From positions 1 to 64,000 of IMG/VR virus record IMGVR_UViG_3300021387_000796: a stretch of DNA of 64,000 nucleotides, one strand, 5' to 3'. The DNA is from a virus (lineage: Duplodnaviria; Caudoviricetes). The stretch's first letter is position 1. Each line of letters begins with the position of its first letter. Of this stretch, positions 14,030 to 55,495 are shown in pieces. The position numbers and the translations under genes are program-made. The notes under the pieces were generated by a model. That model was not told the origin of the DNA. It made no database searches and saw nothing but the letters and a program-made list of their open reading frames with translations.

Positions 14030-14100
14030 AAGAGGTGAGTTTAGGTTTTCGCCCTAAACGTTGATTGAATTTTAATCTCGTTCAATCACGCCTCTTTTTT
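14030..14100 (+). ncRNA. Putative three-way-junction regulatory RNA, copy 1
   Basis: Promoter TTGAAA-17-TACTAT (13993-14021). Closing stem 14030-37/14089-96, loops TTTTCGC and TTTTAATCTCG, then a T-run. Confidence 0.75.
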
Positions 14101-14178
14101 TTATAACTATTTATATGTGTAAACATTAACTATTTAAGTTAATACAAAGTCAGCGAAAATGACTTAAAAATTAAAATT

Positions 14179-15507
14179 ATGAATCTGATGAATCGAATGA
14201 TGTCTTATGATAAGACAAAGAATGTAAATCGAAAGTGTGATTGTGAAAAATGTGCAAATGTTAAATTTGAAAATCAAACTGTAGAACATCTACCTTTATC
14301 CGAAGAAGAAATTAATCAAATTATTAAAGAAAGATATTCTAATAAAGATGAAAAGACAAAGAAATTTATTAGAAAAGCATTACGAAAATATGGTGATAGA
14401 TATGATTATTCAAATGTGGTTTATGTAAAAGCAATAGAAAAAGTAGAAATAATTTGTAGAGTTGAAGGTCATAAACCATTTCCTCAAACACCTAATAATC
14501 ATTTGAATGGTAAAGGTTGTAAAAAATGTGCATTTGAAAAAATATCAAAATTGAAGAAATTAACCACCAAAGAATTTATAGAAAAAGCAAATGAAGTTCA
14601 TGGTGATATGTATGATTATTCTAAAGTGGAATATGTGGGTATGAAAACAGAAGTGATTATAATTTGTCCGAAACATGGACCTTTTTCACAAATACCTAGT
14701 AGTCATTTACAAGGTTGTGGATGTAAACAATGTGGTATTGAAAAACAAATTGAAAGTCAAAAATTAAATACGGAAAAATTTATAAAAAAAGCAAATGAAA
14801 AATACGGAGAAGGAACTTATGATTATTCGAAAGTAGAATATATTGATGCTAAAACTGATGTGATTATAATATGCCCAAAACATGGTGAATTTACACAAAC
14901 TCCATCGAATCATTTAAAAGGGGAAAAATGCCGAAGTTGTTCTAATGAAAAATTAGCAAACGAAAGAAGAAAACCGTTAGAAAATTTTATAAATGAGTCA
15001 AATGAAATTCATGGAGAAGGAACTTATGATTATTCTCAAGTAAATTATGTGAATAGTCATACAGAAGTAATTATAATTTGTTCAAAACATGGTAATTTTT
15101 TTCAAAAACCTAGCAAACATTTAATCGGTCAAGGTTGTCCTAAATGTAAGAATAATTATAAAGGAGAAATCGCAGTTAGAAATTTTTTAATAAAAAATAA
15201 AATAGAATTTGAAGAACAGAAAAAATTTAAAAATTGTAAAGATGTATATTCGTTACCTTTTGATTTTTATTTGCCAAAATATAATTTGTGTATAGAATTT
15301 GACGGAATACAACATTTTAAACCAATAAAACGAAGTTATAAAATGACTGATGATGAAATTGAAAAAAATTTCAAATATATTCAAAAACATGACCAAATTA
15401 AAAACGATTACTGTAAAAACAATGGGATTATTCTCATAAGACTTAATAATCTTAAAATGGTCGAAAAGGAATTAACAAAATACTTTCAAGAATACGGAAT
15501 TTTATAG
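14179..15507 (+). CDS. Free-standing endonuclease: four YDYS/CxxHG/GCxxC (DUF723-like) repeats plus C-terminal PD-(D/E)xK/Vsr-like domain
   Basis: Repeats YDYSKVEY..IICPKHG.F.Q.P..HL.G.GC..C and LPFDFYLP.YNLCIEFDG.QHF. Paralog of 54161. Confidence 0.8.
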   Translation: MNLMNRMMSYDKTKNVNRKCDCEKCANVKFENQTVEHLPLSEEEINQIIKERYSNKDEKTKKFIRKALRKYGDRYDYSNVVYVKAIEKVEIICRVEGHKPFPQTPNNHLNGKGCKKCAFEKISKLKKLTTKEFIEKANEVHGDMYDYSKVEYVGMKTEVIIICPKHGPFSQIPSSHLQGCGCKQCGIEKQIESQKLNTEKFIKKANEKYGEGTYDYSKVEYIDAKTDVIIICPKHGEFTQTPSNHLKGEKCRSCSNEKLANERRKPLENFINESNEIHGEGTYDYSQVNYVNSHTEVIIICSKHGNFFQKPSKHLIGQGCPKCKNNYKGEIAVRNFLIKNKIEFEEQKKFKNCKDVYSLPFDFYLPKYNLCIEFDGIQHFKPIKRSYKMTDDEIEKNFKYIQKHDQIKNDYCKNNGIILIRLNNLKMVEKELTKYFQEYGIL

Positions 15508-32614: not shown

Positions 32615-33823
32615 ATGGATTATATCTCTGTTAAAAAACTTTCAGAAAAATACAAAATTGATTTCTATCAGTTTATTTCTTATCTTGAATTTTTGAACAT
32701 TCCTATTGAAATCGAAAATAATGCTAAATGTGTTCTCATTGAGAATATTCCTATTATTGAAAAATTTGTTTCTACTTATACAACGAATCAGATAAAATAT
32801 ATTAAATCACATAATATTAAAAATTTTTACGAAGGTACTCTTCTTTTAGATTTGCTTAAAAAATATAATCTAAATGAAAAACAATTTAGAATAAAATGCG
32901 AACATGTTAATCTTGAATTCAAATATGTTTATTCTAATGAAGAATGTGAAAGATTTGATGAATTTATGAAAAGTATCTCAACGTTTAATCGTGCGGAATT
33001 AAGAGATTTGAAATATACTAAAGATGGTTGGATTCCATTAAGAAATATTATTGATAAACTTGGTAAAAAATATGATTTTTGTGAAAATACTGCGTTAGCG
33101 ATTCTTGAACATCTAGGAATTAAAGTTTATAAACCATCTCATCAATTTGCTTTCATTAATGAAGAGCAGAAAGAAAAATTTGAAGATTTTCTTAAAGGAT
33201 TTGGTTCGGCAAAAGAAAGAAAATTATTTTTTCAAGAACAAACTTGTATGAAAAAATATGGAGTTGATAATCCTTCTCGTTCTAATGAAGCGAGAAACAA
33301 GATTTCTGAAAAAGTAAAAGAATCTTGTACTGATGAAAGACAAAAGAAAATAGAAGAAACCAAATTAAAGAAATATGGTAAACGTTCAATTACTGATTCA
33401 GAAAAATCAATGAAAAGTAGAATTGAAAATCACGGAACTTTATCAGTAACGCATCAATATATGTTTGAGAAATTAGAATTTCATAGTTCATGGGAAGTTT
33501 ATTTTTATATTTATAATAAATATATTCTTAAAAATAATATAACTAAAGGCAAGATTTTTGAATATAAATATAATGGTAATATTCATCGTTATGAATGTGA
33601 TTTCTTAGTAAATGGTGAAAATATTGAAATTAAAGGTGGACAATTGTTAGATGAAGATGGAAATCTTAAACAAATGAAAAATCGTGAATGGGATATGTGT
33701 AAACAAAAATGTATGGAAGAAAATAATGTGAAACTCATTATAAAGAAAGATATAATTAAAATTATGAAAATTGTAGATGAAAAATATGGTAAAAATTATG
33801 TAGAACAGTTTAAAACAAGATGA
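32615..33823 (+). CDS. Putative homing-type endonuclease (TCMKKYGVDNP repeat plus PD-(D/E)xK-like C-terminus)
   Basis: FHSSWE...Y.CDF.V....IEIKG. The repeat is shared with 40254. Confidence 0.65.
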   Translation: MDYISVKKLSEKYKIDFYQFISYLEFLNIPIEIENNAKCVLIENIPIIEKFVSTYTTNQIKYIKSHNIKNFYEGTLLLDLLKKYNLNEKQFRIKCEHVNLEFKYVYSNEECERFDEFMKSISTFNRAELRDLKYTKDGWIPLRNIIDKLGKKYDFCENTALAILEHLGIKVYKPSHQFAFINEEQKEKFEDFLKGFGSAKERKLFFQEQTCMKKYGVDNPSRSNEARNKISEKVKESCTDERQKKIEETKLKKYGKRSITDSEKSMKSRIENHGTLSVTHQYMFEKLEFHSSWEVYFYIYNKYILKNNITKGKIFEYKYNGNIHRYECDFLVNGENIEIKGGQLLDEDGNLKQMKNREWDMCKQKCMEENNVKLIIKKDIIKIMKIVDEKYGKNYVEQFKTR

Positions 33824-33826
33824 TTT

Positions 33827-35158
33827 ATGGAGAAATACATGAAAATATACAACGAAACCAATGTGTTTGAAGAATCTCAGAAACGGATAGAATTTCTATT
33901 CGACCGTTATCAGAATATAATTGTACCATTCAGTGGTGGTAAGGATTCAACTGTTTGTCTAAATCTTGTTGTTGATTATGCTAGGAAACATAATCTGATT
34001 GACCGAGTTTGTATTGTACATGAAGATTTTGAAGCACAGTATGATATGACTACGGAATTTGTTGATGAAACCTTCAAATCATTGTCTGATATAAAGCATA
34101 AATATTGGTTGTGTCTACCGTTCAAGGCTCAGAATTGTTGCTCGTTGGAATCGAAGGGGTTTTGGAGACCTTGGAATAAAGAACAGAGAGAAATTTGGGT
34201 AAGAGAATTACCGAACTATGATTATGTAGTTACGGAAGAAAATTGTCCGTTTAATTTTGATTATGAATGGTGGGATAAGGATTTGTTATCTGCATTTTCA
34301 AATTGGTTTTCTAGTAAATATGGAAAATCTGTGAATGCTTGTGGCATTCGAGCAGAAGAATCTTATGACCGTTACATGTTGGTTACAAGTGGTTCACATT
34401 CTTTTGACAATCACCGCATTGAAAGTGGCAACAGATGGATTGTGGAAAATGAACTTTCATCGATGTCATATCCGATTTATGATTGGATTGTAGAAGATGT
34501 ATGGGTGTACTTTGCGAAGAGTGGGAAGACATATAACAAGTTGTATGATTTGTATTATAAAGCAAGTCTTTCAGTAGACCAAATGCGTGTAGCAAGTCCA
34601 TTCAATAATCAAGCCAATGCAACATTAAAATTTTATAAGTGTATTAATCCTTCGATGTGGGGAAGAATGATTTCTCGTGTACAAGGTGCAAACTTTGTTT
34701 CCCTTTATGGTGATACAAAACTTATGGGATGGAGAGATTGTAAACTTCCGAAAAACTACACATGGAGAACTTACTGTGAATTTTTGCTGAACACTTGTAG
34801 CGAAGATGTGAAAAATCATTTTATAGAAAAGTTTACTACTAGTATAAGTTATTGGTGTAAGGGAAAAGGTGCATTCATTGACCCACAGAGCATCGATGAG
34901 ATACACGAATTTTATAAAGATATTGAAATTGAAGATTTGGGAGAAAGTTCTAGATATAAAAATAAACATCTTGTGAGGTTTAAGAATTATCCTGACGATT
35001 TAAGTTTGTGTAAGAAATGGATGGATTTACCGTCTTACAAGAGAATGTGTGTAACAATTTTGAAGAATGATTACATTTGTAAAACAATGGGATTTTCACC
35101 TAGCAAGACGGAATCAGAAAAAAGAAAAATAGCATTGGAAAAATTTAAGGAGTTGTAA
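33827..35158 (+). CDS. PAPS-reductase-like protein (IbrA/YbdN, DUF3440)
   Basis: Motifs FSGGKDS, GIRAEES, YPIYDW..EDVW, QMRVASPF and PSYKRMC. Confidence 0.88.
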   Translation: MEKYMKIYNETNVFEESQKRIEFLFDRYQNIIVPFSGGKDSTVCLNLVVDYARKHNLIDRVCIVHEDFEAQYDMTTEFVDETFKSLSDIKHKYWLCLPFKAQNCCSLESKGFWRPWNKEQREIWVRELPNYDYVVTEENCPFNFDYEWWDKDLLSAFSNWFSSKYGKSVNACGIRAEESYDRYMLVTSGSHSFDNHRIESGNRWIVENELSSMSYPIYDWIVEDVWVYFAKSGKTYNKLYDLYYKASLSVDQMRVASPFNNQANATLKFYKCINPSMWGRMISRVQGANFVSLYGDTKLMGWRDCKLPKNYTWRTYCEFLLNTCSEDVKNHFIEKFTTSISYWCKGKGAFIDPQSIDEIHEFYKDIEIEDLGESSRYKNKHLVRFKNYPDDLSLCKKWMDLPSYKRMCVTILKNDYICKTMGFSPSKTESEKRKIALEKFKEL

Positions 35159-35160
35159 TT

Positions 35161-35787
35161 ATGGAAAAGAAAATTACGGTGAATTATGAAAATACTCATA
35201 CTTTTGAAAGATGTTGGGATTTGACAGACGAAGAAATAGAACAGATGAATAACTCTGATTATGTTTCACCGATTTATGAAGTGAAGAAAATTCCGATAGA
35301 ATTGATTAAAGCAAATAATTATAATCCAAATGCTATGGATAAAAATATCTTTGAACTTCTTCATACTTCTATGATTGAAAGTGGTTGGACGCTTCCTTGT
35401 GTTGTAGCACCAAATAACGATGAAGATAAAGACAAGCATCCCTATGTGTTGGTTGATGGTTTTCACAGAGTTTTGATTATGTCACTCTACAAGGATATTT
35501 ATATTCGTGAAAAAGGTGTAGTTCCTTGCGTAGTGTTGAATAAAGACCAAAATCGATATGACCGTATGTTTGCTACAATTTTGCATAATAGATGTAAGGG
35601 AACTCACGATATCGATATTATGTCGAATATTATTACGGAACTTGTTTCAAGTGGTCTGTCTGATTATGAGATTCAGCGAAGATTGGGAATGGATAAAGAA
35701 GAATTATTAAGATTGAAACAGTTGACAGGTCTTGCTAGTTTATTTGCTGATAAAGAATTTTCAAAAAGTTGGAAGTTTGAAGAATAG
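35161..35787 (+). CDS. ParB-like nuclease domain protein (IbrB/YbdM)
   Basis: Motifs ANNYNPN, VDGFHR, TILHNRCKGTH and LGMDKEELLRLKQ. Confidence 0.88.
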   Translation: MEKKITVNYENTHTFERCWDLTDEEIEQMNNSDYVSPIYEVKKIPIELIKANNYNPNAMDKNIFELLHTSMIESGWTLPCVVAPNNDEDKDKHPYVLVDGFHRVLIMSLYKDIYIREKGVVPCVVLNKDQNRYDRMFATILHNRCKGTHDIDIMSNIITELVSSGLSDYEIQRRLGMDKEELLRLKQLTGLASLFADKEFSKSWKFEE

Positions 35788-36346
35788 GAGAAAGTTATGA
35801 ATGAAATTAATTACATTACATTGAAAAGACACGGTTGGACAGATAAATTGATTGAAAAATTTAATCTTCATCCAACATCATATGATATAAAAAGTCATAA
35901 ACCTAAATTCGATAATTCTATTGTTATGAAAATTGAATCTTCGCAAGAATTTAGAAATGAATTGATTAAAATTCAGAAAGAGAAAAATTTGAAGAAAACT
36001 GTTCCACAATTAAAGAAAATATTTCGAGAAATGCTTTTCGATAAGATTGAAAATGATAAATTTTTTGGATTAAAATGTCTTTACCATGACCCAAAAAGTG
36101 AAAATGAAAAGTATGCTAAAAATTATATTAAAGAAATGAACAAACACTTTGAATTGTTCCGTGTCGAATGGTGTACTAAAATAAAACAATGTGGAACTGT
36201 CGAAGAATTATCGTTGTTGGCAAAAGAAATGGATAATTTGTATGGAGAACATTTTTCAGATTATTTGTGATTTGTTGACATTCCATTTAATTCTATCTTA
36301 CTTTGTTTATGATTTGTTTTGTCCTAATTTTGTTAATGATGAAAGT

Positions 36347-36378
36347 AAAAATACCCTAGAAAATCTAGGGTATTTTTT
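36347..36378. terminator. Bidirectional terminator at the end of the capsid gene
   Basis: AAAAATACCCTAGA-aaa-TCTAGGGTATTTTT. Confidence 0.8.
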
Positions 36379-36412
36379 ATCTATTTATATCTTGTTAGAT
36401 TTCAAGTTAGAC

Positions 36413-37966
36413 TTACGAATTTGCAGTGAGGTTTTCAAGAGTAACCACAGTAGCGAAGTGTTTGTTGTTAATTTTGCTATCAGCATAAACACCCAAGCCC
36501 ATCTGTGAATTAAAATTCTTAAGTTCAACTGGGTTTGTAGTGATACCTGTTCCGTAAGTTCCGATTGATACAGGTGCATCAACATTCTTGCTTTCTGTAC
36601 TCTTACCGAAGAGATAGAGTTTGCCTTCATTAGCACCGTTACCGATGATTGATTTAGGAGCCATATAAACTCCACGACCATCGATATCACCTACCTTGAA
36701 GATACCAACTTTGCTTGTAGGTTTAACACCAACAAACTTGTTGTGCTTTGTAAGGTAAGAATAAGATGTTGAATCACAAACGATGTTTGTTTCATCAGCA
36801 AGACGACCAATTGCATCATATGGGAGGTTTTCACCATTGATGATTGCAGAAATTACTGACTGTGCGTGAGCGTAAGAAGAGTCAGCACCAGCAGTTGCGA
36901 AGTCTGTATCAAATGTTACAGGAGCGTGCCATGTAGAAGCCTTGATACCCTTTGCAATACATCTTTCATCGAATGCTTTACGGAATTCGTCACCTGCACC
37001 TGCAATAAGCATATCTTTAGCAGAAAGTCCGAGTTTTGAATTCATCAAATCTTCAGAGAAACGTGTCCATTCTACTTCGAGTGGGTAAAGAATAGCAGAG
37101 AACTGATATTCAACCAAGTTCAAGAGAACAGAACCTGTTCTTGGGAAGAGGGCAGGGTCTTCGAAATCATAAGCGTACTGTACTGTAACTTCAGCACTAG
37201 CACCACCACTTACTGCACTTGCAAATACTACAGAAATAGCACCACTTGTGTAGTTTACAGTTGAAGGAGTTGATGTATCAAGAGTAGCACCAACAAGAAC
37301 ACCACTACCATTATCAGTTGCTACTTGTGTACCATCAAGGAATACAGATACCTTGAAAGGAATAAGTGGAGCATAAGAAAGTGTAGCAGTCCATGTTACA
37401 CCTGCATCAGCAGAAGTAAGTGTTTCTTGCTCGAATGTAGAAGGATAACGACCTTCGCCGTAGTTTTCATAAACTACATTGCCTTCTGTTGCACCACGAG
37501 CAGTTGAACCGTAAGTTGTTTCCAACTTGTAAAGGCTATCTTTCATTGATGACATACCCCAAACATCAAATACATCTTGTGCGATTGAGTTTGTGTAAGC
37601 AATACGAGAAATCTTTACGATATCGGTTGGCAACATGAGAGCCATTGTTCCACCAGTCTGCATTGCTTCTTTCATCTGACCTTCTGTCATTGATTTGATA
37701 GCCTGCTCTTGGAGAACATTCTGTGCGATTGTAGGATTTCTACGAGCCTGAATTTCAGAGTTCTCAAGGAACAAAATAAGATTTTCAGCCTTTTTAGCAT
37801 CCTTCTCGAACATCTCTTCAAGTTTACCCTTTCCGAGTGCGAGACCCTTTGATTTTGAATATTTTTCCTTCAGTTTAAGGATTTTATTCTCTCTTTCTGA
37901 GAGTTTTTCATTGTAAATTGAACGAGCCTTATCTTCGCTCATTCTCATAACTTTTCCGAAACCCAT
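36413..37966 (-). CDS. Major capsid protein (T4 gp23-like) with charged N-terminal propeptide
   Basis: IAQDVFDVWGM resembles the gp23 IA.DI.GVQPM motif. Biased codon usage. SD AAGGTG before ATG 37966 and a TAACTAT motif upstream. Confidence 0.8.
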   Translation of the reverse strand: MGFGKVMRMSEDKARSIYNEKLSERENKILKLKEKYSKSKGLALGKGKLEEMFEKDAKKAENLILFLENSEIQARRNPTIAQNVLQEQAIKSMTEGQMKEAMQTGGTMALMLPTDIVKISRIAYTNSIAQDVFDVWGMSSMKDSLYKLETTYGSTARGATEGNVVYENYGEGRYPSTFEQETLTSADAGVTWTATLSYAPLIPFKVSVFLDGTQVATDNGSGVLVGATLDTSTPSTVNYTSGAISVVFASAVSGGASAEVTVQYAYDFEDPALFPRTGSVLLNLVEYQFSAILYPLEVEWTRFSEDLMNSKLGLSAKDMLIAGAGDEFRKAFDERCIAKGIKASTWHAPVTFDTDFATAGADSSYAHAQSVISAIINGENLPYDAIGRLADETNIVCDSTSYSYLTKHNKFVGVKPTSKVGIFKVGDIDGRGVYMAPKSIIGNGANEGKLYLFGKSTESKNVDAPVSIGTYGTGITTNPVELKNFNSQMGLGVYADSKINNKHFATVVTLENLTANS

Positions 37967-38667
37967 AGTTTTCACCTTTTGTTTCATCGATTGAGGTTTT
38001 TAGTTTGCTTTACACGAAAGAATTACTAAAATACCTATAAGATATATAGTTATCGGCATGAACAAAAGATTTCTAACAAATTCTAAAAAATCTCACTGAT
38101 ACATTTTTAAAAATCAAAGCATATAATTTCGACTTCGTATCAACCGCACCTCATATAAAAATCTTGACGGTTTATTGCCAATTAAACTTTTCTTTATAAT
38201 AAATAGTTAATATTTTTTATTAACATCCAACATAATAAATAGTTAATATTTTTTAACTTTTACATTTAAATTAGAAGCATCTTTAATTAAATTTAAAATA
38301 TATTGATAATCTTCATCAGTTCCATTGTCTATTTTAAATTCTATATAATCTCCGTTTTTATTTGATACTATAATTTCGATATCATCTTCATAGCCATCAA
38401 TAAAACCTATTTTAGAAAATGATAAAAATTTATCAGCAATTTCTAATGTATCAAGAAGAGCATTTTCGCCAAAAATTTCATAATTTTTTAAACCTCGCAT
38501 AAAAGGTTCTAAATCTCCGCCAAAACCCACACTTGTTATTTTAAATCTCATAATGTACCTCTTTTAATAAAAATTAATTGTTTTATAAGATAGTTAAAAT
38601 AAAAAGACCTAGATGATTTTTATAGGTCTTTTTATTTTAATTTGGTTTGTATTTCACTTTAATTGTA

Positions 38668-38847
38668 CCACCTTATTTATATATTGAATAAAAAGAGATT
38701 TCATAAAAACGGATTTAGAAAAGACAAATTAAAAAAATACTTGATAAAGGAAAGATTAAAATATATTCTCATAATATGATTGAATTGGAAATATGCCGAC
38801 AGAACTGCGTTTACGATTGCGGTACTGTGAAAATGGAATATAAATAG
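38668..38847 (+). pseudogene. Frameshifted C-terminal remnant of a 40254-type endonuclease
   Basis: Fragments YILNKKRFHKNGFRKDKLKK and ELEICRQNCVYDCGTVKMEYK* match YIVNGKRIHKSNFRKDKIKK...IYDCGTMKVIYE* of 40254. Confidence 0.75.
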
Positions 38848-38856
38848 GAGAATAAT

Positions 38857-40068
38857 ATGATTGAAATTAAAGGAAAATATAACAATGCTAAAGTTTTCGT
38901 AGATGATTATGACAAGTTGGAAGAAGCATGTTATAAACAGATTTTGAATTTGTTGAATCAGAAATTTTCAGAAGGTTCACAAATCAGAATTATGGAAGAT
39001 TGTCATGCAGGAAGTGGATGTGTAATTGGTTTTACTCAAACAATTGTTAATAAAATTGTTCCAAATTTGGTTGGAGTAGATATTGGTTGTGGAATGCAAG
39101 TTCTTAAAATATCTAAAGATTTTCATTTTGATTTAAAAAACTTGGATAAAGTATGGCGAGCGAACATTCCTATGGGAATGGCACACAGAAGTACAAAACA
39201 TAAATTCTGCGAAAATATAAATCTCGATAATATTATTACACCAATTAACAAAGAAAAAGAATTACTTGCTCTTGGCTCATTAGGTGGAGGAAATCATTTT
39301 GGCGAATTAGATATCGATAAAGAAGGGAATTATTATCTTGTAATTCATAGCGGTTCTCGACATTTAGGAATTGAAGTTTGTAAATATTGGCAGAATAAAG
39401 CAATTGAATATCATAAAAATCACATCAAGGAAAAAACTGAAATCATTGAACGACTTAAGAGAGAAGGTCGTGAAAAAGAAATTCAGTCTGAACTTGATAA
39501 ACTAGAATTTGAAAAAGTTCCAAATGAACTTGCATATCTTGAAGGTGAAGATTTGAAAGGATATTTACATGATATGGAAATTGCACAAAATTTTGCTTAT
39601 TGGTCAAGAAAGGCTATGCAAGATGAAATTTGTAAAGCATTGAATATTAAGAAGAAACATATTCTTGATGAATTCTGTACAGTTCATAATTATGTAGATA
39701 TTAAAAATAAGATTATTCGTAAAGGTTCTATCTCAGCATACAAAGATGAAATTGCAATTATTCCTATGAACATGGCTGACGGTTCTTTAATTGTAAAAGG
39801 TAAAGGAAACGAAGATAGAAATTGTTCTGCTCCTCATGGTGCAGGTCGTCTTATGTCACGTTCTATGGCTAAAGAATCTCTTAAAATGGAAGATTTCAAG
39901 AAGTCAATGAAAGATGTTTACACAACTTCTGTTTGTGTAGGAACTATAGATGAATCACCTATGGCTTACAAACCTATGGAACAGATTCTTGAAACTATTG
40001 GAGATACTTGTGAAGTTTTGAAAATTATAAAGCCGATTTGGAATGTAAAGGCGAACGATGGAGAATAA
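38857..40068 (+). CDS. rtcB: RtcB RNA ligase
   Basis: Motifs DCHAG, VGVDIGCG, GSLGGGNHF, HSGSR, HN, HGAGR and DESP.AYK. Confidence 0.93.
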   Translation: MIEIKGKYNNAKVFVDDYDKLEEACYKQILNLLNQKFSEGSQIRIMEDCHAGSGCVIGFTQTIVNKIVPNLVGVDIGCGMQVLKISKDFHFDLKNLDKVWRANIPMGMAHRSTKHKFCENINLDNIITPINKEKELLALGSLGGGNHFGELDIDKEGNYYLVIHSGSRHLGIEVCKYWQNKAIEYHKNHIKEKTEIIERLKREGREKEIQSELDKLEFEKVPNELAYLEGEDLKGYLHDMEIAQNFAYWSRKAMQDEICKALNIKKKHILDEFCTVHNYVDIKNKIIRKGSISAYKDEIAIIPMNMADGSLIVKGKGNEDRNCSAPHGAGRLMSRSMAKESLKMEDFKKSMKDVYTTSVCVGTIDESPMAYKPMEQILETIGDTCEVLKIIKPIWNVKANDGE

Positions 40069-40141
40069 ATTTTTAATTATTTCTCTTTAAATTTATGATT
40101 TTTTACTTGATTAAATATTTAGAATTTATTATATTTAATTG

Positions 40142-40202
40142 TGAGAGGACAGTATGCTACCAACATATTGATTTCATATTCCTTTATGAAATCTAACTCT
40201 TA
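40142..40202 (+). ncRNA. Putative three-way-junction regulatory RNA, copy 3
   Basis: Promoter TTGATT-17-TATATT (40107-40135). Loops CTACCAA and TTCCTT are complementary to leader loop TTGGTAG and SD AAGGAA. Confidence 0.75.
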
Positions 40203-40253
40203 ACTATTTATGTTGTCATTGGTAGTGACATAAAAGTTAAAACATTTAAGGAA

Positions 40254-42335
40254 ATGAAACAAATGACTGAAATCAAAGATAATTTAAAATCGATATCGTG
40301 GATTCGTAAAAATATTAATGTAAAATTAAAAACGTTAAATAAAATAATAAAAATTCTAAATCTCAATCCCACAATTAGAACAAATAAATTTAACGAACAA
40401 ACGGAATATTATGATTTAGATAAAATAAAAGAATTTATAAATTCTCACGATGTTAATCGTATGTATAGTATTTCGCAAATTTCTAAAATAATAGGTGTTG
40501 GTCGTACATCAATAAATACAGTAATAAAATATTTAAATTTAGATAAATTTGAATTTTTATGCGATGAAGAATTGAATAAAATAAAACAATTTTATAAAGA
40601 GCATGAGAATGATTATAGATATTTTTTTCAAAACAAAACAAATCTTGAAAAATACGGTTCGTTGTGTCCGTTGGCAAATAAAGAAATTCAAAAGAAAGCA
40701 GAAGAAACTTGTTTGGAAAAATATGGTGTAAAAAATTATACCAAAACTGAAGAATTTAAAACAAAATTTAAACAAACTTCTTTAGAAAAATATGGTACAG
40801 AATTTCCTATGCAAAACGAAGATGTTAAAGAAAAAGGAAAGCAAACTTCATTAGAACGTTATGGTGTTGAATATGCATCTCAAAGTGAAGATTTTAGAAA
40901 AAGAGTTGAACGAACTAATTTAGAAAAATACAATACAAGATGTTCGCTTCATTCATATGAAGCAGAACAAAAAACTAAAGAAACTAACTTAAAATGTTAT
41001 GGTGTAGAAAATGTTTCACAATCAAATATCATTAAAGAAAAAGTTAAGAATACTAATTTAAAAAATTTCGGAGTTGAACATCCGATTCAAAATGAAAAAA
41101 TCAAAGAAAAGATTAAACAAACCAATCTCAAAAAGTTAGGAGTTGAATATCCTACACAAAATAAAGATATTATGAATAAAGTAAAACAAAGTAATCTTAA
41201 AAAATTTGGTGTAGAATGTTCTTTACAAAATAAAGAAATTAGAGATAAAGTGACACAAACTTATTTGAAAAAATTAGAACTTGCAAAATCTCAAAATTTA
41301 TATTGTGTTAAAGATTTAGCAATTATTTTTAATAAAAGCGAAAGTGCCATTACTATGGATTTGAAGCGTCTAAACATTGATGTTGTCAAATTTGAAAAAG
41401 ATTTTAGGTTGTATGTAAAACAATCTGATTTGAAAATTCTTGAAAATTATTTTATTGATACAGAATGTAGCGGAATATCTTATTCTGAAAAAGAAATAGT
41501 AGAATTTATAAAATCTATTTATTCAGACGAAATTATTGAAAATAGTAGAACTATTATTTCACCAAAAGAATTGGATATTTATATACCTCAAAAGAATTTA
41601 GCAATTGAATATGATGGATTGTATTGGCATGATGAAAATCATGTGGAAAATAAATATCATTTAAATAAAACAAAAGCATGTAATGAAAAAGGGATAGATT
41701 TGATTCATGTTTTTGAAGATGATTGGTTGTACAAAAAAGAAATTGTGAAATCTATGATTTCTAGCCGACTTGGTGTTTATAAAGAAAAGATTTTTGCTCG
41801 TAAATGTCAGATAAAGGAAATTGAAAAAGACCAAGCGAAAATATTTTTTGATGAGAATCATTTACAAGGGTTTGCGTACGGTGATTTGTATTTAGGACTT
41901 ATGTTTAACAATGAACTTGTTCAATGCATCTGTATGAATAAAAAAGGTTGGCATGATGGAAATGTAGAATTAACTCGCATGGCTACAAAATTGAATATTC
42001 AAGTAATTGGAGGATTCAGTAAATTGATGAAACATATTTCCGATTATATTGAATACAAATCAATCACAAGTTATGTGTATAAAGCATGGTTTAATGGAAA
42101 AGGATATATGGAAAGTGGATTCAAAGTAATCAAAGAAAATAATCCTTCTTATTTTTATATTGTAAATGGTAAACGAATTCATAAATCTAATTTTCGAAAA
42201 GACAAGATTAAGAAAATGTTCGAGAGAGGGGGATTAGAATTTTATGATTCAGATAAAACAGAACATGAAATTATGAAGAAAAACAAGATATATAGAATTT
42301 ATGATTGCGGAACTATGAAAGTAATTTACGAATAA
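40254..42335 (+). CDS. Free-standing (Hef-like) endonuclease with about 8 TNLEKYGVE repeats
   Basis: Repeats KQTNLKKYGVEYP.Q, ELDIYIP...LAIEYDGLYWH and C-terminal RIYDCG. The start may be ATG 40263. Confidence 0.8.
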   Translation: MKQMTEIKDNLKSISWIRKNINVKLKTLNKIIKILNLNPTIRTNKFNEQTEYYDLDKIKEFINSHDVNRMYSISQISKIIGVGRTSINTVIKYLNLDKFEFLCDEELNKIKQFYKEHENDYRYFFQNKTNLEKYGSLCPLANKEIQKKAEETCLEKYGVKNYTKTEEFKTKFKQTSLEKYGTEFPMQNEDVKEKGKQTSLERYGVEYASQSEDFRKRVERTNLEKYNTRCSLHSYEAEQKTKETNLKCYGVENVSQSNIIKEKVKNTNLKNFGVEHPIQNEKIKEKIKQTNLKKLGVEYPTQNKDIMNKVKQSNLKKFGVECSLQNKEIRDKVTQTYLKKLELAKSQNLYCVKDLAIIFNKSESAITMDLKRLNIDVVKFEKDFRLYVKQSDLKILENYFIDTECSGISYSEKEIVEFIKSIYSDEIIENSRTIISPKELDIYIPQKNLAIEYDGLYWHDENHVENKYHLNKTKACNEKGIDLIHVFEDDWLYKKEIVKSMISSRLGVYKEKIFARKCQIKEIEKDQAKIFFDENHLQGFAYGDLYLGLMFNNELVQCICMNKKGWHDGNVELTRMATKLNIQVIGGFSKLMKHISDYIEYKSITSYVYKAWFNGKGYMESGFKVIKENNPSYFYIVNGKRIHKSNFRKDKIKKMFERGGLEFYDSDKTEHEIMKKNKIYRIYDCGTMKVIYE

Positions 42336-42387
42336 TAAATAAAAAACACCAAGAATAAACTTGGTGTTTTTATTTTAATTTATTATT

Positions 42388-44241
42388 TTATTTTGTCATT
42401 TCAACTTTAACATCGACCCCGCTCTTATAAATATTAAAATTGAGTAAAATGGTTCTGGAGAATTTTTTTGGTACAATTCCTACTGCAACAATCAATCTTT
42501 CTTGATTTCTTGTTTCGGCGGTATTGTTATCGGAATCACACCATACATAATAATCTTCAAGACGATTAGAATATGTTCCGAGAATTGAATTACAACCACT
42601 TCTTACAACAGAATAAGATGCTTCATCAATCATTTTACCAATTCGACTAGGGAGTACATTCTTTTCAATCTGTTCGATGAGAGTATCAACCAAAGAAGAA
42701 ATTGGAATATTTGACAAATCTGTTTTCTTTACTTGACGAGTTCTCCATCCACCAATCATAGCACCATAGTTGTAATCGTTGATTACCGCATTGAAGTTAA
42801 TATTATCAAGTGTTTCGAGAACATCTTCAGAGGTTGTGTCTTGCGTGAGTTTTACGATACTTGAACCAAGAATACCACCTACGCCGTTCTCATCAATATA
42901 AGCAGGAGCAGAGGTTGTATTTGCTTCATTATCCAAGTAATCTACGATTCTACCAGCAATTAAACCCATGTTAGAACATTTGAAATCGTTACCTTGATAA
43001 ATGTCTTTGTGGATACCCCAATTCAAACAATACTGATACATACCTCTGTTTGCAGTAATACCAAAGTTATAATCATTTGGATTTTCAACAATTGTGTTTC
43101 CATCAACATCAGCAGTACAATAAATAAATCTACAACGTTTCTGATAACTGTTTCTAAGATTTTCAAACTTAGCAATAACTTCAGCATAATTTGTTCCGTC
43201 AACACAGAATTTCAATTGGAACTTATTTGTATCAATTAATTGTTCATAAAGATTTGCAACATCAGCACCATCAACTTCTGTACCACGAGAACCACCACTA
43301 AGATTTACCATAGAATCATCATTCATGAATCCATCTACAATTGAAGTTACAACATGAGCATCAAATAAAGTCTGATTGTCTCCAAAAATATTATTGATGT
43401 AAATATTGTCGCCGTAACTATCTTTTGATGTTTCGGAAAGACCCACAATGAAAGGACTATTGGTTACTTCTGTGTATTCAAGATTGATAGGGTCATAACG
43501 AGCAACTACAATTTCAAAAGCATTTTCGACATCTTCAGATAAAGTTACTTGAACTTGCAAATCATCTTCTTGCATGTTTTTATCGAAAAGAACGAAATAA
43601 GTGTCAGACATATCCATGTCATAACCAATAGAAATCGTAGTTCCTGTAGAAGGTGCTTGTAAGAATGTCAAGTTTAATACACCTGTCTCGGTGTTTAAAG
43701 TACAACCTTCGTCTAAAAGATTGCCATCGTCAGACAAAGTTTCTATATTATCGTTGACACTAATCGATATATCATGTGCCACACCACCTATACTAAGTGT
43801 CAGTGTTTCAGGTTTATATTTTTCAATGTATTTGATTGTATAAGAATATGATAATGTTGTTCCATTTCCAATTCCTACATTATCTATAAAAGCAACGGAA
43901 TTATAGTCCGAAATTTCTTTATTCGATACTCCTTGATTAAAAGGAATTGTACCCATAGACTTTGTTACAAATACTCCACCGTAAGTACCACCTTTGTATG
44001 GACTAGCGACATACATTGTACATTTCTGTACAACATCAAGAGCATCTTGAATTGTTGGATAATCTTTTGAAGGATAACCAAATGTATTCAAAATACCTTG
44101 TGTATCACCTTTGTTAAATTTAGTAAAAGTTTTTGGTCCTTTAGGTGAAACGATTGCTATAGCACCAACAGTAGGTGTACTCACATTTGCTTTTTCTGTA
44201 TTATCTTGTTCAACTGTTTGTAATCTCCAAGATTGAGCCAT
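42388..44241 (-). CDS. Contractile tail sheath protein
   Basis: N-terminal SPKGP..FGYP, LSGG..G, and C-terminal YYVWCDSDNNT.E.......V...P. Confidence 0.85.
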   Translation of the reverse strand: MAQSWRLQTVEQDNTEKANVSTPTVGAIAIVSPKGPKTFTKFNKGDTQGILNTFGYPSKDYPTIQDALDVVQKCTMYVASPYKGGTYGGVFVTKSMGTIPFNQGVSNKEISDYNSVAFIDNVGIGNGTTLSYSYTIKYIEKYKPETLTLSIGGVAHDISISVNDNIETLSDDGNLLDEGCTLNTETGVLNLTFLQAPSTGTTISIGYDMDMSDTYFVLFDKNMQEDDLQVQVTLSEDVENAFEIVVARYDPINLEYTEVTNSPFIVGLSETSKDSYGDNIYINNIFGDNQTLFDAHVVTSIVDGFMNDDSMVNLSGGSRGTEVDGADVANLYEQLIDTNKFQLKFCVDGTNYAEVIAKFENLRNSYQKRCRFIYCTADVDGNTIVENPNDYNFGITANRGMYQYCLNWGIHKDIYQGNDFKCSNMGLIAGRIVDYLDNEANTTSAPAYIDENGVGGILGSSIVKLTQDTTSEDVLETLDNINFNAVINDYNYGAMIGGWRTRQVKKTDLSNIPISSLVDTLIEQIEKNVLPSRIGKMIDEASYSVVRSGCNSILGTYSNRLEDYYVWCDSDNNTAETRNQERLIVAVGIVPKKFSRTILLNFNIYKSGVDVKVEMTK

Positions 44242-46422: not shown

Positions 46423-46495
46423 GATTGAAAGGAATGATAGGCGGTCAACCTATTGATAGAATATCCTAGTTCTGTCTAACCTTTCAATCTTTTTT
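46423..46495 (+). ncRNA. Orphan three-way-junction RNA, copy 4
   Basis: Closing stem GATTGAAAGG/CCTTTCAATC, loops CGGTCAA and ATCCTA, then a T-run and the same TAACTAT..AACATTAACTATTT spacer. Confidence 0.7.
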
Positions 46496-46957
46496 AACTA
46501 TCTTATATAAACATTAACTATTTATATCAGTATTGCAGATATGATAATTATGTAAAAATTTTAGGTGAATATATTGTAGACCTAAACTTTGATAAATTAT
46601 ATTAATAGGATGGTGAATTATGAATAATTTAGAAATAGCACAAAGTAAATTAAAATATTCAGACCATGAATTTTTTATTAAAGACAATAATGAAGATTTT
46701 AAATATTGGAATCAGTTATATCTTTCTTTGACTCAACTAGATAATTTGGAAGATATTATTTTTACAGTAAGACGTGCTGATTGTGGAGGAGTTATTCAAA
46801 TTGATAAAAACAAACTCTCTATTAGAGTAGATGCTGATAAAGGTAAGTTGCCTTTGTTTTGGATAGAATATGATATAATTAATGATATTATAATTTTCTT
46901 TTAATGAATGGAAATTTTTCAATTTAGTATTGTTTTATTCTTTCCTTTAATGATATA

Positions 46958-53992: not shown

Positions 53993-54072
53993 ATAAGCGA
54001 GATGTATTTCAAGTTGGTGCTTGAATTGACAGAATTCCTAATCTCATTTTGTCACATCTCGTTTATTTTTTT
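53993..54072 (+). ncRNA. Putative three-way-junction regulatory RNA, copy 2
   Basis: Promoter TTGATT-17-TATTAT (53957-85). 13-bp closing stem, loops TTGGTG and TCCTAATCTC, then a T-run. Confidence 0.8.
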
Positions 54073-54160: not shown

Positions 54161-55495
54161 ATGAATTCATTAACTCGAATGATGTCTTACGACAAGGCAA
54201 AAAGTAAAAATCAAGAACAGTGTAATTGTGTAGAATGTGTTTCTGTTGAAAATGCAGAATTAAAAAATCAAACGATTGAATACCCAAAATTATCGGAAGA
54301 AGAAATCGAACAAATTATTAATGAAATATATTCTTATAAAGATGAAAAGACAAAAACTTTTATTAGAAAAGCATTAAGAATTCATGGTAATAGATATGAT
54401 TATTCAAATGCTGTTTATGTGAATACTAAAATAAAAATTGAAATAATTTGTAAAATAAATAATCATAAAAATTTTTTGCAACGACCGAATGACCATTTGA
54501 AAGGTTGTGGATGTAAAGAATGTGCTAAAAAATATTTTGGTGCAAGTAAAAGATTAACATTGGAAGAATTTATAAAAAAATCAAACGAAATACAAGGTGA
54601 AGGGAGATATGATTATTCGAAAGTTGAATATAAAAATACGAATACTAAAGTATGTATAATTTGCAATAATCACGATGAACCTTATGAATTTTGGCAAACT
54701 CCTAGCAATCATTTAAACGGACACGGTTGCCCAAAATGTGCAAGAATTGAAAAATTAACCTTGAAAGAATTTATTGAAAAAGCGAACAGAGTTCATGGTG
54801 TAGGAACTTATGATTATTCTGAATCAAAATATATTAACACAATAACTCCTATTAAAATAATTTGTTTAATTCATGGTGGTTTTTGGCAGACACCCAATGT
54901 TCATTTAGGTGGAAGTGGATGTCCTAAATGTGCAAATGAACTTGTACATGAACGACAAAAATTAACCTTGAAAGAATTTATCGAAAAAGCAAATGAGGTA
55001 CAAGGGATTGGAAGATATGATTATTCAAAAGTAAAATATATAAATGCACATACTAAAGTAATTATAATTTGTCCGAAGCATGGTGAATTTTCTCAATTAC
55101 CTTATGCTCATTTAAAAGGACGAGGATGTATGTTATGTTGTGAAAAATCAAAAGGTGAAACAAAAATTAGAATATTTTTAATTAATAACAACATATCATT
55201 TGAACAAGAAAAACGATTTAAAGAATGTAGAGATAAAAATCCACTACCTTTCGATTTTTATTTACCGCAATATAATTTATGTATTGAATTTGACGGTGAA
55301 CAACATTTCAAACCATTCGCTTTTAATTCTAGGAAAGTAAGTGATGATATAAAATTAGAAAATCTCAAAAAGGTTCAAAAACATGACCAAATGAAAAATG
55401 ATTATTGTAAAAAGAACGGAATTACTCTTTTGAGAATTAACGATATTAGAAAAATTAATAAAATATTGAATGATTATTTTAAGATAAAAAATTAG
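54161..55495 (+). CDS. Free-standing endonuclease, paralog of 14179 (DUF723-like repeats plus PD-(D/E)xK/Vsr-like domain)
   Basis: Same N-terminal RMMSYDK, four YDYS repeats and LPFDFYLP..NLCIEFDGEQHF. Confidence 0.8.
   Translation: MNSLTRMMSYDKAKSKNQEQCNCVECVSVENAELKNQTIEYPKLSEEEIEQIINEIYSYKDEKTKTFIRKALRIHGNRYDYSNAVYVNTKIKIEIICKINNHKNFLQRPNDHLKGCGCKECAKKYFGASKRLTLEEFIKKSNEIQGEGRYDYSKVEYKNTNTKVCIICNNHDEPYEFWQTPSNHLNGHGCPKCARIEKLTLKEFIEKANRVHGVGTYDYSESKYINTITPIKIICLIHGGFWQTPNVHLGGSGCPKCANELVHERQKLTLKEFIEKANEVQGIGRYDYSKVKYINAHTKVIIICPKHGEFSQLPYAHLKGRGCMLCCEKSKGETKIRIFLINNNISFEQEKRFKECRDKNPLPFDFYLPQYNLCIEFDGEQHFKPFAFNSRKVSDDIKLENLKKVQKHDQMKNDYCKKNGITLLRINDIRKINKILNDYFKIKN

Follow-up and report, generated by a model that had tools for sequence, protein, structure and literature searches.

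An RNA module at positions 40142 to 40202 of the window stands upstream of a free-standing homing endonuclease gene and displays two hairpin loops, which are complementary to two sites in the leader of this gene. The window is the stretch of DNA analysed here, i.e. the first 64 kb of the 218,066-bp IMG/VR virus record IMGVR_UViG_3300021387_000796, an uncultured gut phage (genome label G000) with a G+C content of 29%. The phage hosting the module, which is referred to as copy 3, is a large phage of animal guts and apparently lytic. With a probability of about 0.7, copy 3 is a member of an uncatalogued family of phage RNAs, which form a translational-repression cassette at the 5' side of free-standing homing endonuclease genes. 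Among the selfish genes of large phages, homing endonucleases are the commonest, and their control is so far understood mainly from the hairpins of phage T4.

Architecture of copy 3 and its leader

The minimum free energy (MFE) structure is a three-way junction in copy 3 and in all other copies of this genome. In copy 3, the closing stem and the two hairpins are connected by the junction strands GA and CUAA, and the module is followed by a TAACTAT element, a leader hairpin and the Shine-Dalgarno (SD) sequence of the endonuclease gene (Table 1). Loop 1 (CTACCAA) is a perfect complement of the leader hairpin loop TTGGTAG (7 of 7 positions) and loop 2 (TTCCTT) of the SD AAGGAA (6 of 6). An earlier note, written from the sequence letters, had described both pairings as perfect, which is confirmed; the stem, hairpins, TAACTAT, leader hairpin and SD it listed were all found where it had placed them. 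The first ATG (40254) follows the SD directly and another in-frame ATG is found at 40266. In contigs of three other gut metagenomes, the substitution G40143A converts the G.U pair of the closing stem to A-U.

For copy 3 alone, both complements were present in the 68-nucleotide (nt) leader in 50 of 200,000 dinucleotide shuffles, and the expectation of both complements from genome word frequencies is ~1e-4. This low chance figure, a sister phage whose module is rewritten yet still paired and the complements found throughout the family (both described below) indicate that the copy-3 pairings are not due to chance.

Table 1. Positions of copy 3, its surroundings and the further modules of the genome (window coordinates unless noted).
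Feature	Position	Strand	Evidence or remark
Module RNA copy 3, three-way junction	40142..40202	+	MFE fold; covariance model R1 68.7 bits; covariation in 28 relatives
Closing stem	40142-40147 (TGAGAG) with 40197-40202 (CTCTTA)	+	six pairs including one G.U
Hairpin 1, CAGTATG-CTACCAA-CATATTG	40150-40170	+	loop 1 = CTACCAA
Hairpin 2, (G)ATTTCATA-TTCCTT-TATGAAAT(C)	40171-40192; 40170-40193 with bracketed bases	+	loop 2 = TTCCTT
Leader hairpin, TGTCA-TTGGTAG-TGACA	40214..40230	+	MFE fold; loop 40219-40225 = 7-nt tag
SD, AAGGAA	40248..40253	+	complement of loop 2
Free-standing homing endonuclease gene, 693 amino acids (aa)	40254..42335	+	Pfam DUF7487; PHROG 3339
σ70-like promoter, TTGATT-17 nt-TATATT	40107..40135	+	consensus match only; predicted start at or just before closing stem
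TAACTAT, phage promoter-like element	40201..40207	+	between module and leader hairpin; placement statistics genome-wide
rtcB	38857-40068		5' neighbour of copy-3 cassette; Pfam RtcB 1.5e-56
Two-way intrinsic terminator	42342..42371	both	12-bp stem, T-runs on each strand; closes cassette
Tail-sheath gene	42388-44241	opposite	3' neighbour of copy-3 cassette; PHROG 23
Copy 1 (type A)	14030..14096	+	5' of YDYS endonuclease gene 14179-15507; loop TTTTCGC pairs leader loop GCGAAAA
Copy 2 (type A)	53996..54063	+	5' of YDYS endonuclease gene 54161-55495; (G)TTGGTG(C) pairs (G)CACCAA(C)
Copy 4, full copy	near 199460, outside window	-	tag pair TTGGACG/CGTCCAA; YDYS endonuclease
Orphan module (type B)	46423..46489	+	R1 17.5 bits, E 0.013; no endonuclease gene behind

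The RNA family and its covariation

Viral, genome and metagenome collections were scanned with the pattern AGAGGACAG-N38-62-CTAACTCTT, and matches were kept if a hairpin and a loop complement were present. Most pattern matches in genome and metagenome contigs were chance matches and were removed by this test, leaving about 25 distinct modules. The covariance model R1 was built from these modules, and pattern scan and R1 together yielded a set of 28 modules (type C/B). A type-B module outside the training set is found by R1 at 47.8 bits. A loose descriptor scan for three-way junctions with complements was discarded: it gave 5-8 matches per shuffled genome, missed copy 4 and is uninformative unless G+C content of the tag and hairpin context are added.

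Covariation was counted on hand-parsed segments and on a model-fitted alignment, because MAFFT aligned the module regions of types A and C poorly. In the model-fitted alignment of the 28 modules, and with the reservation that both alignments lean towards the structure, 95.1% of the cells were paired (73.8% after shuffling), 92 cells showed double changes (25.3 after shuffling) and the covariation score was 0.529 (0.135 after shuffling). This score was reached by none of 500 shuffles and was ≤ 0.10 when the partners were slid. All 28 modules share the core AGAGGACAG...UUG...CUAACUCUU; UUG and a G.U as third pair of hairpin 1 are invariant (28/28), neither being required by the pattern. The G.U pair occupies columns 9 and 40 of alignment A7 (window 40152 and 40168), and the junction strands GA and CUAA likewise show no variation among the 28 modules. 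This combination of an invariant G.U with GA/CUAA suggests a tertiary contact or a binding site for a protein or RNase.

Complementarity of both loops to the leader extends beyond copy 3. A full Watson-Crick complement of 6-7 nt to loop 1 is located in a hairpin loop 16-58 nt downstream in 25 of the 28 modules. In ten copies of this phage and its relatives that were parsed by hand, the pairs between loop 1 and leader loop are all Watson-Crick, with two to three pair types per position. The cross matrix of tags is diagonal, as cognate pairs match over 6-7 nt and non-cognate pairs over ≤ 5, mostly ≤ 3, nt; between close relatives, the tags diverge much faster than the flanking stems. Loop 2 complements either the SD (AAGGAA, AAGGAG, TAGGAG, GGAGAA, GAGATTAGGA) or the start codon (CTATGACAAA, TCGATGAA, ACCAATGAA, CATAATGAA, TATGAGA) in all parsed copies. 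At L220 and L223, the scaffold is present and no target is recognisable.

Judged from the sequences, the family is of shared ancestry and not convergent, because the junction core is conserved and the copy-3 leader can be aligned with those of copies 1, 2 and 4. The view of the earlier note that structure rather than sequence is conserved therefore holds for the covarying helices and fails for the core, UUG, the G.U pair and the alignable leaders.

Compensatory changes in relatives

The 71.6-kb contig L136 of a sister phage aligns by BLAST to window positions 34857-40152 at 99.4%. It visibly diverges from the window at ~40118, just past the -35 element, and is 87% identical from 40965 on. Between ~40118 and 40965, it contains a rewritten copy 3, in which both module hairpins and the leader hairpin have new, still paired stems, and loop 2 has become TACTTCATCC, which is complementary to GGATGA. 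A compensatory change in copy 3's own lineage is seen in the relative L390, where loop 2 is CTCCTT and the SD AAGGAG, versus TTCCTT and AAGGAA in copy 3.

Five further modules, each with a new tag, precede YDYS enzymes in the relatives G001, G003 and G005. One of the modules, G003_114946, has the copy-3 scaffold (AAGAGGACAG...CUAACUCUU) and a 6-nt loop 2, TTCTCC, complementary to GGAGAA. As it stands before a YDYS enzyme, the copy-3 type serves two enzyme families within this phage group.

The tag pair CTACCAA/TTGGTAG is swapped between module loop and leader loop when copy 3 (40157-40163/40219-40225) is compared with L136, and TTGACG/CGTCAA is likewise swapped between L219 and L291. A loop flip in each hairpin would yield swapped tags and an orthogonal pair in two steps.

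Further modules in the same genome

The enzymes of copies 1, 2 and 4 are paralogous YDYS zinc-finger endonucleases, 51-58% identical over the best-matching segments. Loop 2 pairs 7-10 nt over SD and start codon in these three copies; in copy 2, TCCTAATCTC pairs GAGATTAGGA across the SD. Model R1, which represents type C, misses copies 1, 2 and 4; architecture, leader alignment and the 5' half of the closing stem point to their kinship with copy 3.

Copy 1 has lost 16 nt between two ATTAAAATTAT repeats, including the SD AGGAG (window 14150-14181 compared with L004:1455-1503 and L005). Its orthologues retain ...ATAGGAGATTAAAATTATG, where loop 2 TTTTAATCTC pairs over 10 nt (GAGATTAAAA). Because of this loss, the copy-1 endonuclease may be poorly translated in this phage.

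The orphan module is orthologous to a module of G003 (L159), which precedes a 451-aa frame (434 aa when counted from the aligned start) for a YDYS enzyme. The window (46423-46904) has, in place of this enzyme gene, a 94-aa open reading frame (ORF) without family match. Loop 2 of the orphan, ATCCTA, still complements the SD region TAGGAT of this ORF; a leader loop with the expected tag TTGACCG did not turn up in the 3.6 Mb of sequence scanned.

A 402-aa ORF at 32615 has an upstream hairpin but no convincing loop complement. Outside the window, on the minus strand of G000 at ~193530-193430, a 400-aa DUF7487-type gene is preceded by one 12-bp hairpin with TAACTAT 5' of it. The hairpin loop, CATCAATATAT, complements 11 nt abutting the SD, forming a simple leader pseudoknot.

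Endonuclease genes and the inserted cassette

Enzymes behind the copy-3 scaffold were classified by Pfam and motifs. They comprise DUF7487 enzymes (window, L136/L173, L294), YDYS enzymes with DUF723/DUF4379 (L167, L343, L369, L379), GIY-YIG enzymes (L213, L216, L219, L291) and NUMOD3 enzymes with an HNH-like motif HH-I-x-P-K/R-S (L222, L232). By eye, an HNH-like motif was also recognised at L214, L299, L300, L302, L340 and L394. These four endonuclease kinds behind one scaffold strongly support portability of the module between nuclease families, more broadly than had been proposed from copies 1 to 3. At L299:3442-4377, the C-terminal part of an HNH-motif endonuclease encoded behind a type-C module matches Pfam Flagellin_C (8e-14), an odd combination.

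The copy-3 enzyme exceeds the cut-off of DUF7487 (PF24308) with 175.5 versus 27 bits (E 2e-51) and matches PHROG 3339, 'homing endonuclease', at 1e-135. It contains KYGV-type repeats and ends with ...IYDCGTMKVIYE. The domain order is helix-turn-helix (HTH)-like segments, DUF7487 repeats, a nuclease domain (~aa 400-510) and a GNAT/Mom-like domain (~aa 515-693), whereby the HTH-like segments were read by eye and otherwise appear as a below-cutoff HTH_11 match in the L173 homologue only. PDB sequence searches and NCBIfam gave nothing for the copy-3 or the YDYS endonuclease.

For the catalytic domain, a model with a mean pLDDT (predicted local distance difference test) of 75 was compared by Foldseek. 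The best match was I-Bth0305I (3r3p; template modelling (TM) score 0.64/0.74, root-mean-square deviation 2.7 Å, 23% identity, E 1.3e-3), followed by Vsr (1cw0, TM 0.62); the E-values are modest (1e-3 to 1e-2). In this model, the domain has an I-Bth0305I/Vsr-like (EDxHD) fold. The solved chain of I-Bth0305I is the catalytic domain alone, and the repeats and the HTH-like and GNAT/Mom-like parts of the copy-3 enzyme are outside this comparison. By hhalign, the copy-3 and YDYS enzymes have homologous catalytic domains (probability 92.5%, E 4.8e-7), and both enzymes match PHROG 559. The enzymes of copies 1 and 2 contain YDYS repeats and belong to DUF723/DUF4379. The copy-3 nuclease, put forward earlier as structurally different from these, thus differs in its DNA-binding repeats and Pfam family and shares with them a homologous catalytic domain, modelled with an I-Bth0305I/Vsr-like fold. 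For the last ~180 residues (~41800-42332), which show a GNAT fold, the top PDB match is Mom of phage Mu (8bv8, E 1.8e-7), followed by GNAT enzymes. Mom of phage Mu is a DNA-modifying enzyme.

The module and its gene lie between rtcB and a tail-sheath gene. In other phages with an RtcB 88-93% identical, both module and endonuclease gene are absent after rtcB; hence, the unit from ~40069 or 40105 to 42371 is an inserted cassette. In contigs of three other gut metagenomes, the match to the window starts at 40105, just 5' of the -35 element. A megablast search against deposited phages gave no match, and distant blastn searches found pieces of rtcB and the endonuclease only. Just 5' of rtcB (38668-38846), a stop-containing remnant similar to the C-terminal 63 residues of the copy-3 enzyme ends with VYDCGTVKMEYK*; the same remnant is present in G001 (L178). 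Thus, rtcB is flanked by one dead and one live endonuclease gene.

Promoter-like elements and transcript ends

Two promoter-like elements flank copy 3. The first resembles a σ70 promoter; its -35 box, 17-nt spacer and a TAnnnT -10 box are retained in L136 despite the changed sequence, and L390 has TTGACT-17-TATAAT at the same place. The second, TAACTAT, was examined across the whole genome, where 45 of 95 sense copies, versus 11 of 95 reverse-complement copies, lie 21-70 nt 5' of a gene start. The genes downstream include NrdD, tail-sheath and baseplate. In its longer form TAACTAT(T/C)T, it is a strongly placed and oriented element 5' of ~45 genes, which span all functional classes, and probably represents the -10-like part of the main promoter type in this phage group. 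A TAACTAT/TACTAAT-like element is located 3' of the module in 24 of the 28 modules, and the distance from this element to the start of the leader hairpin is 6-16 nt in the copies parsed from this phage group, which places the hairpin at the predicted transcript start. A scan of viral contigs for tandem TAACTAT...TTAACTATTT gave chance matches without modules.

The modules differ in their 3' ends. Types A, B and many type-C modules end in a stem with a U-run, and at least 7 T are present in the 10 nt after the closing stem in 10 of the 28 modules. Copy 3, L136 and G003_114946 have no U-run. A look-up of RNA sequencing runs listed none that contain window positions 38800-42400.

Proposed function and alternatives

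In the proposed mechanism, the ~60-nt three-way junction would display both hairpin loops. Loop 1, as a private tag of 6-7 nt, would kiss the loop of the leader hairpin at the 5' end of the leader, which would provide speed and specificity. Loop 2 would then pair with the SD or the start codon, ribosome binding would be blocked and synthesis of the endonuclease kept low. As the covarying contacts end on the SD or start codon, a block of translation initiation is the most economical reading, and repression is the direction of effect which these contacts suggest. The module RNA would be made from its own putative σ70-like promoter, and the second candidate promoter, TAACTAT, is placed between module and leader, so that endonuclease mRNA could be made without the module. 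In read-through transcripts from the first promoter, pairing would occur within one molecule; such read-through is expected in copy 3 because a U-run is absent after the closing stem. Any mRNA starting at TAACTAT would be reached by the module only in trans. The diagonal tag matrix and the fast divergence of the tags point to such intermolecular recognition. In the case of copy 3, where no terminator is present, fold-back within a read-through transcript is no less plausible.

Several observations weigh against repression by a module RNA of this kind. The loop 2 pairing of copy 3 spans only 6 nt. The SD abuts the first ATG and is 13 nt from the second, which makes the true start codon uncertain. 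The closing stem of copy 3 is short (4-6 bp) and lacks a U-run, and therefore a free small RNA may never exist. The σ70-like sequence is a consensus match only, of a kind which is not enriched in this AT-rich DNA, and TAACTAT precedes metabolic and structural genes alike, so no timing can be read from it. Because the scanning pattern fixes the 18 bases of the junction core, their conservation is in part built in; it leaves free UUG, the G.U pair and the helices. Furthermore, other DUF7487-type genes have no module (G000 at 205127 and 74076; G003 at L174, L175, L177 and L180).

It is unlikely, although to be taken seriously, that the module acts in cis only, as in T4, masking the start as part of the 5' untranslated region, with transcripts from TAACTAT translated freely and no free small RNA formed. 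The modules without U-run would fit such an element, as would the promoter-like sequence between mask and start, for which T4 I-TevI, segB and Aeh1 mobE provide precedents (PMC2988022). Nevertheless, a purely intramolecular element needs neither tags that are mutually orthogonal within one genome nor tags that outpace their flanking stems in divergence among close relatives. The modules ending in stem and U-run resemble independent small RNAs, and the target tag is presented in a hairpin loop at the predicted mRNA 5' end, as in known antisense targets.

Going further than repression of the adjacent gene, the modules could be trans-acting, tag-addressed silencers in conflicts between co-infecting phages, which we consider improbable. 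If true, a module with the right tag would silence the endonuclease of a rival, and the genome carrying it would escape cutting and conversion. The orphan at 46423-46489 shows a module persisting without its gene. Loop flipping in both partner hairpins, as a one-step source of new orthogonal tags, would explain the swapped pairs (copy 3/L136 and L219/L291), and the invariant junction core with its G.U pair would dock some chaperone or RNase.

Activation or stabilisation of the mRNA by the module is very improbable. In principle, mRNA decay could be influenced by a kiss with a hairpin at the 5' end, and leader pairing could raise endonuclease synthesis through protection of the mRNA or the opening of an inhibitory structure; however, loop 2 of the parsed copies pairs directly with SD or start codon, which blocks initiation and cannot expose a site, and the leaders have no strong self-structure hiding the SD. 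That the module is a mere terminator or insulator at the cassette edge, with complementarities as by-product or by chance, is scarcely credible: types A and B do end in a stem with a U-run and cassettes of homing endonucleases often come with transcription signals of their own (PMC2988022), but two internal hairpins with loops covarying with two downstream sites (25 of 28 loci) are not needed for this, copy 3 lacks the U-run and its chance figure is ~1e-4.

Comparison with known systems

C4 RNA matures from a longer precursor by RNase P. Like C4 (RF01695), the translational-repression cassette proposed here comprises an RNA of ~60-77 nt with a closing stem and two hairpins, encoded on the same strand and 5' of its target. 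In C4 of P1/P7, loop b' covers the ribosome binding site (RBS), and loop a' pairs further upstream and sets specificity (PMC5320573); a few base changes in the a' loop suffice to abolish cross-reaction between variants (Citron & Schuster 1990, as summarised in PMC5320573 and PMC8198154). Correspondingly, the two loops of the present modules each find a complementary site in a downstream target of the same orientation, and one loop covers the RBS of the first target gene in all parsed copies, at the SD or the start codon. The target of C4 is the icd/ant immunity operon in Proteobacteria and their temperate phages, whereas the genes here are homing endonuclease genes of a large, apparently lytic phage of animal guts and not an antirepressor or immunity operon of a temperate phage. 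Unlike in C4, specificity resides in a site that is a hairpin loop in its own right, RNA and target are separated by a promoter-like element and several orthogonal copies occur in one genome. At gathering threshold, Rfam gave 0 matches for the whole window and for five further loci; at E up to 10, copy 3, copy 2 and the L136 variant gave noise only and no C4 or related match. No account of a two-loop RNA associated with endonuclease genes was found in literature searches.

RBS-sequestering hairpins control homing endonuclease genes in T-even phages (I-TevI, I-TevII, I-TevIII, segB and Aeh1 mobE; PMC2988022). Common to these hairpins and the mechanism proposed here is an RNA pairing which hides the start site of a phage homing endonuclease. 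In the T-even systems, a promoter is placed such that some transcripts lack the mask; here, TAACTAT, which is found between mask and RBS and is promoter-like by its genome-wide placement, is a candidate for such a promoter. The T4-type mask is one local hairpin containing the RBS, whereas the SD of copy 3 is outside any strong local hairpin, the masking loop being ~65 nt upstream. Instead, a separate, conserved three-way junction would reach the start site by two short loop contacts; it has a variable specificity tag and often its own terminator.

The modules are a new RNA family, real and strongly covarying, which is built on a known, C4-like principle and adds a family lacking in Rfam. A dedicated RNA module travels with the endonuclease genes, is reused across at least four endonuclease kinds and is re-addressed by rewriting the 6-7-nt tag and the loop directed against the start site. 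With their naturally orthogonal tags, these putative riboregulators form a ready set open to reporter fusions. The C4 principle, known from a single immunity operon in phages of Proteobacteria, is extended to mobile genes of a broad class that occur in metagenomes of gut, rumen and other origin.

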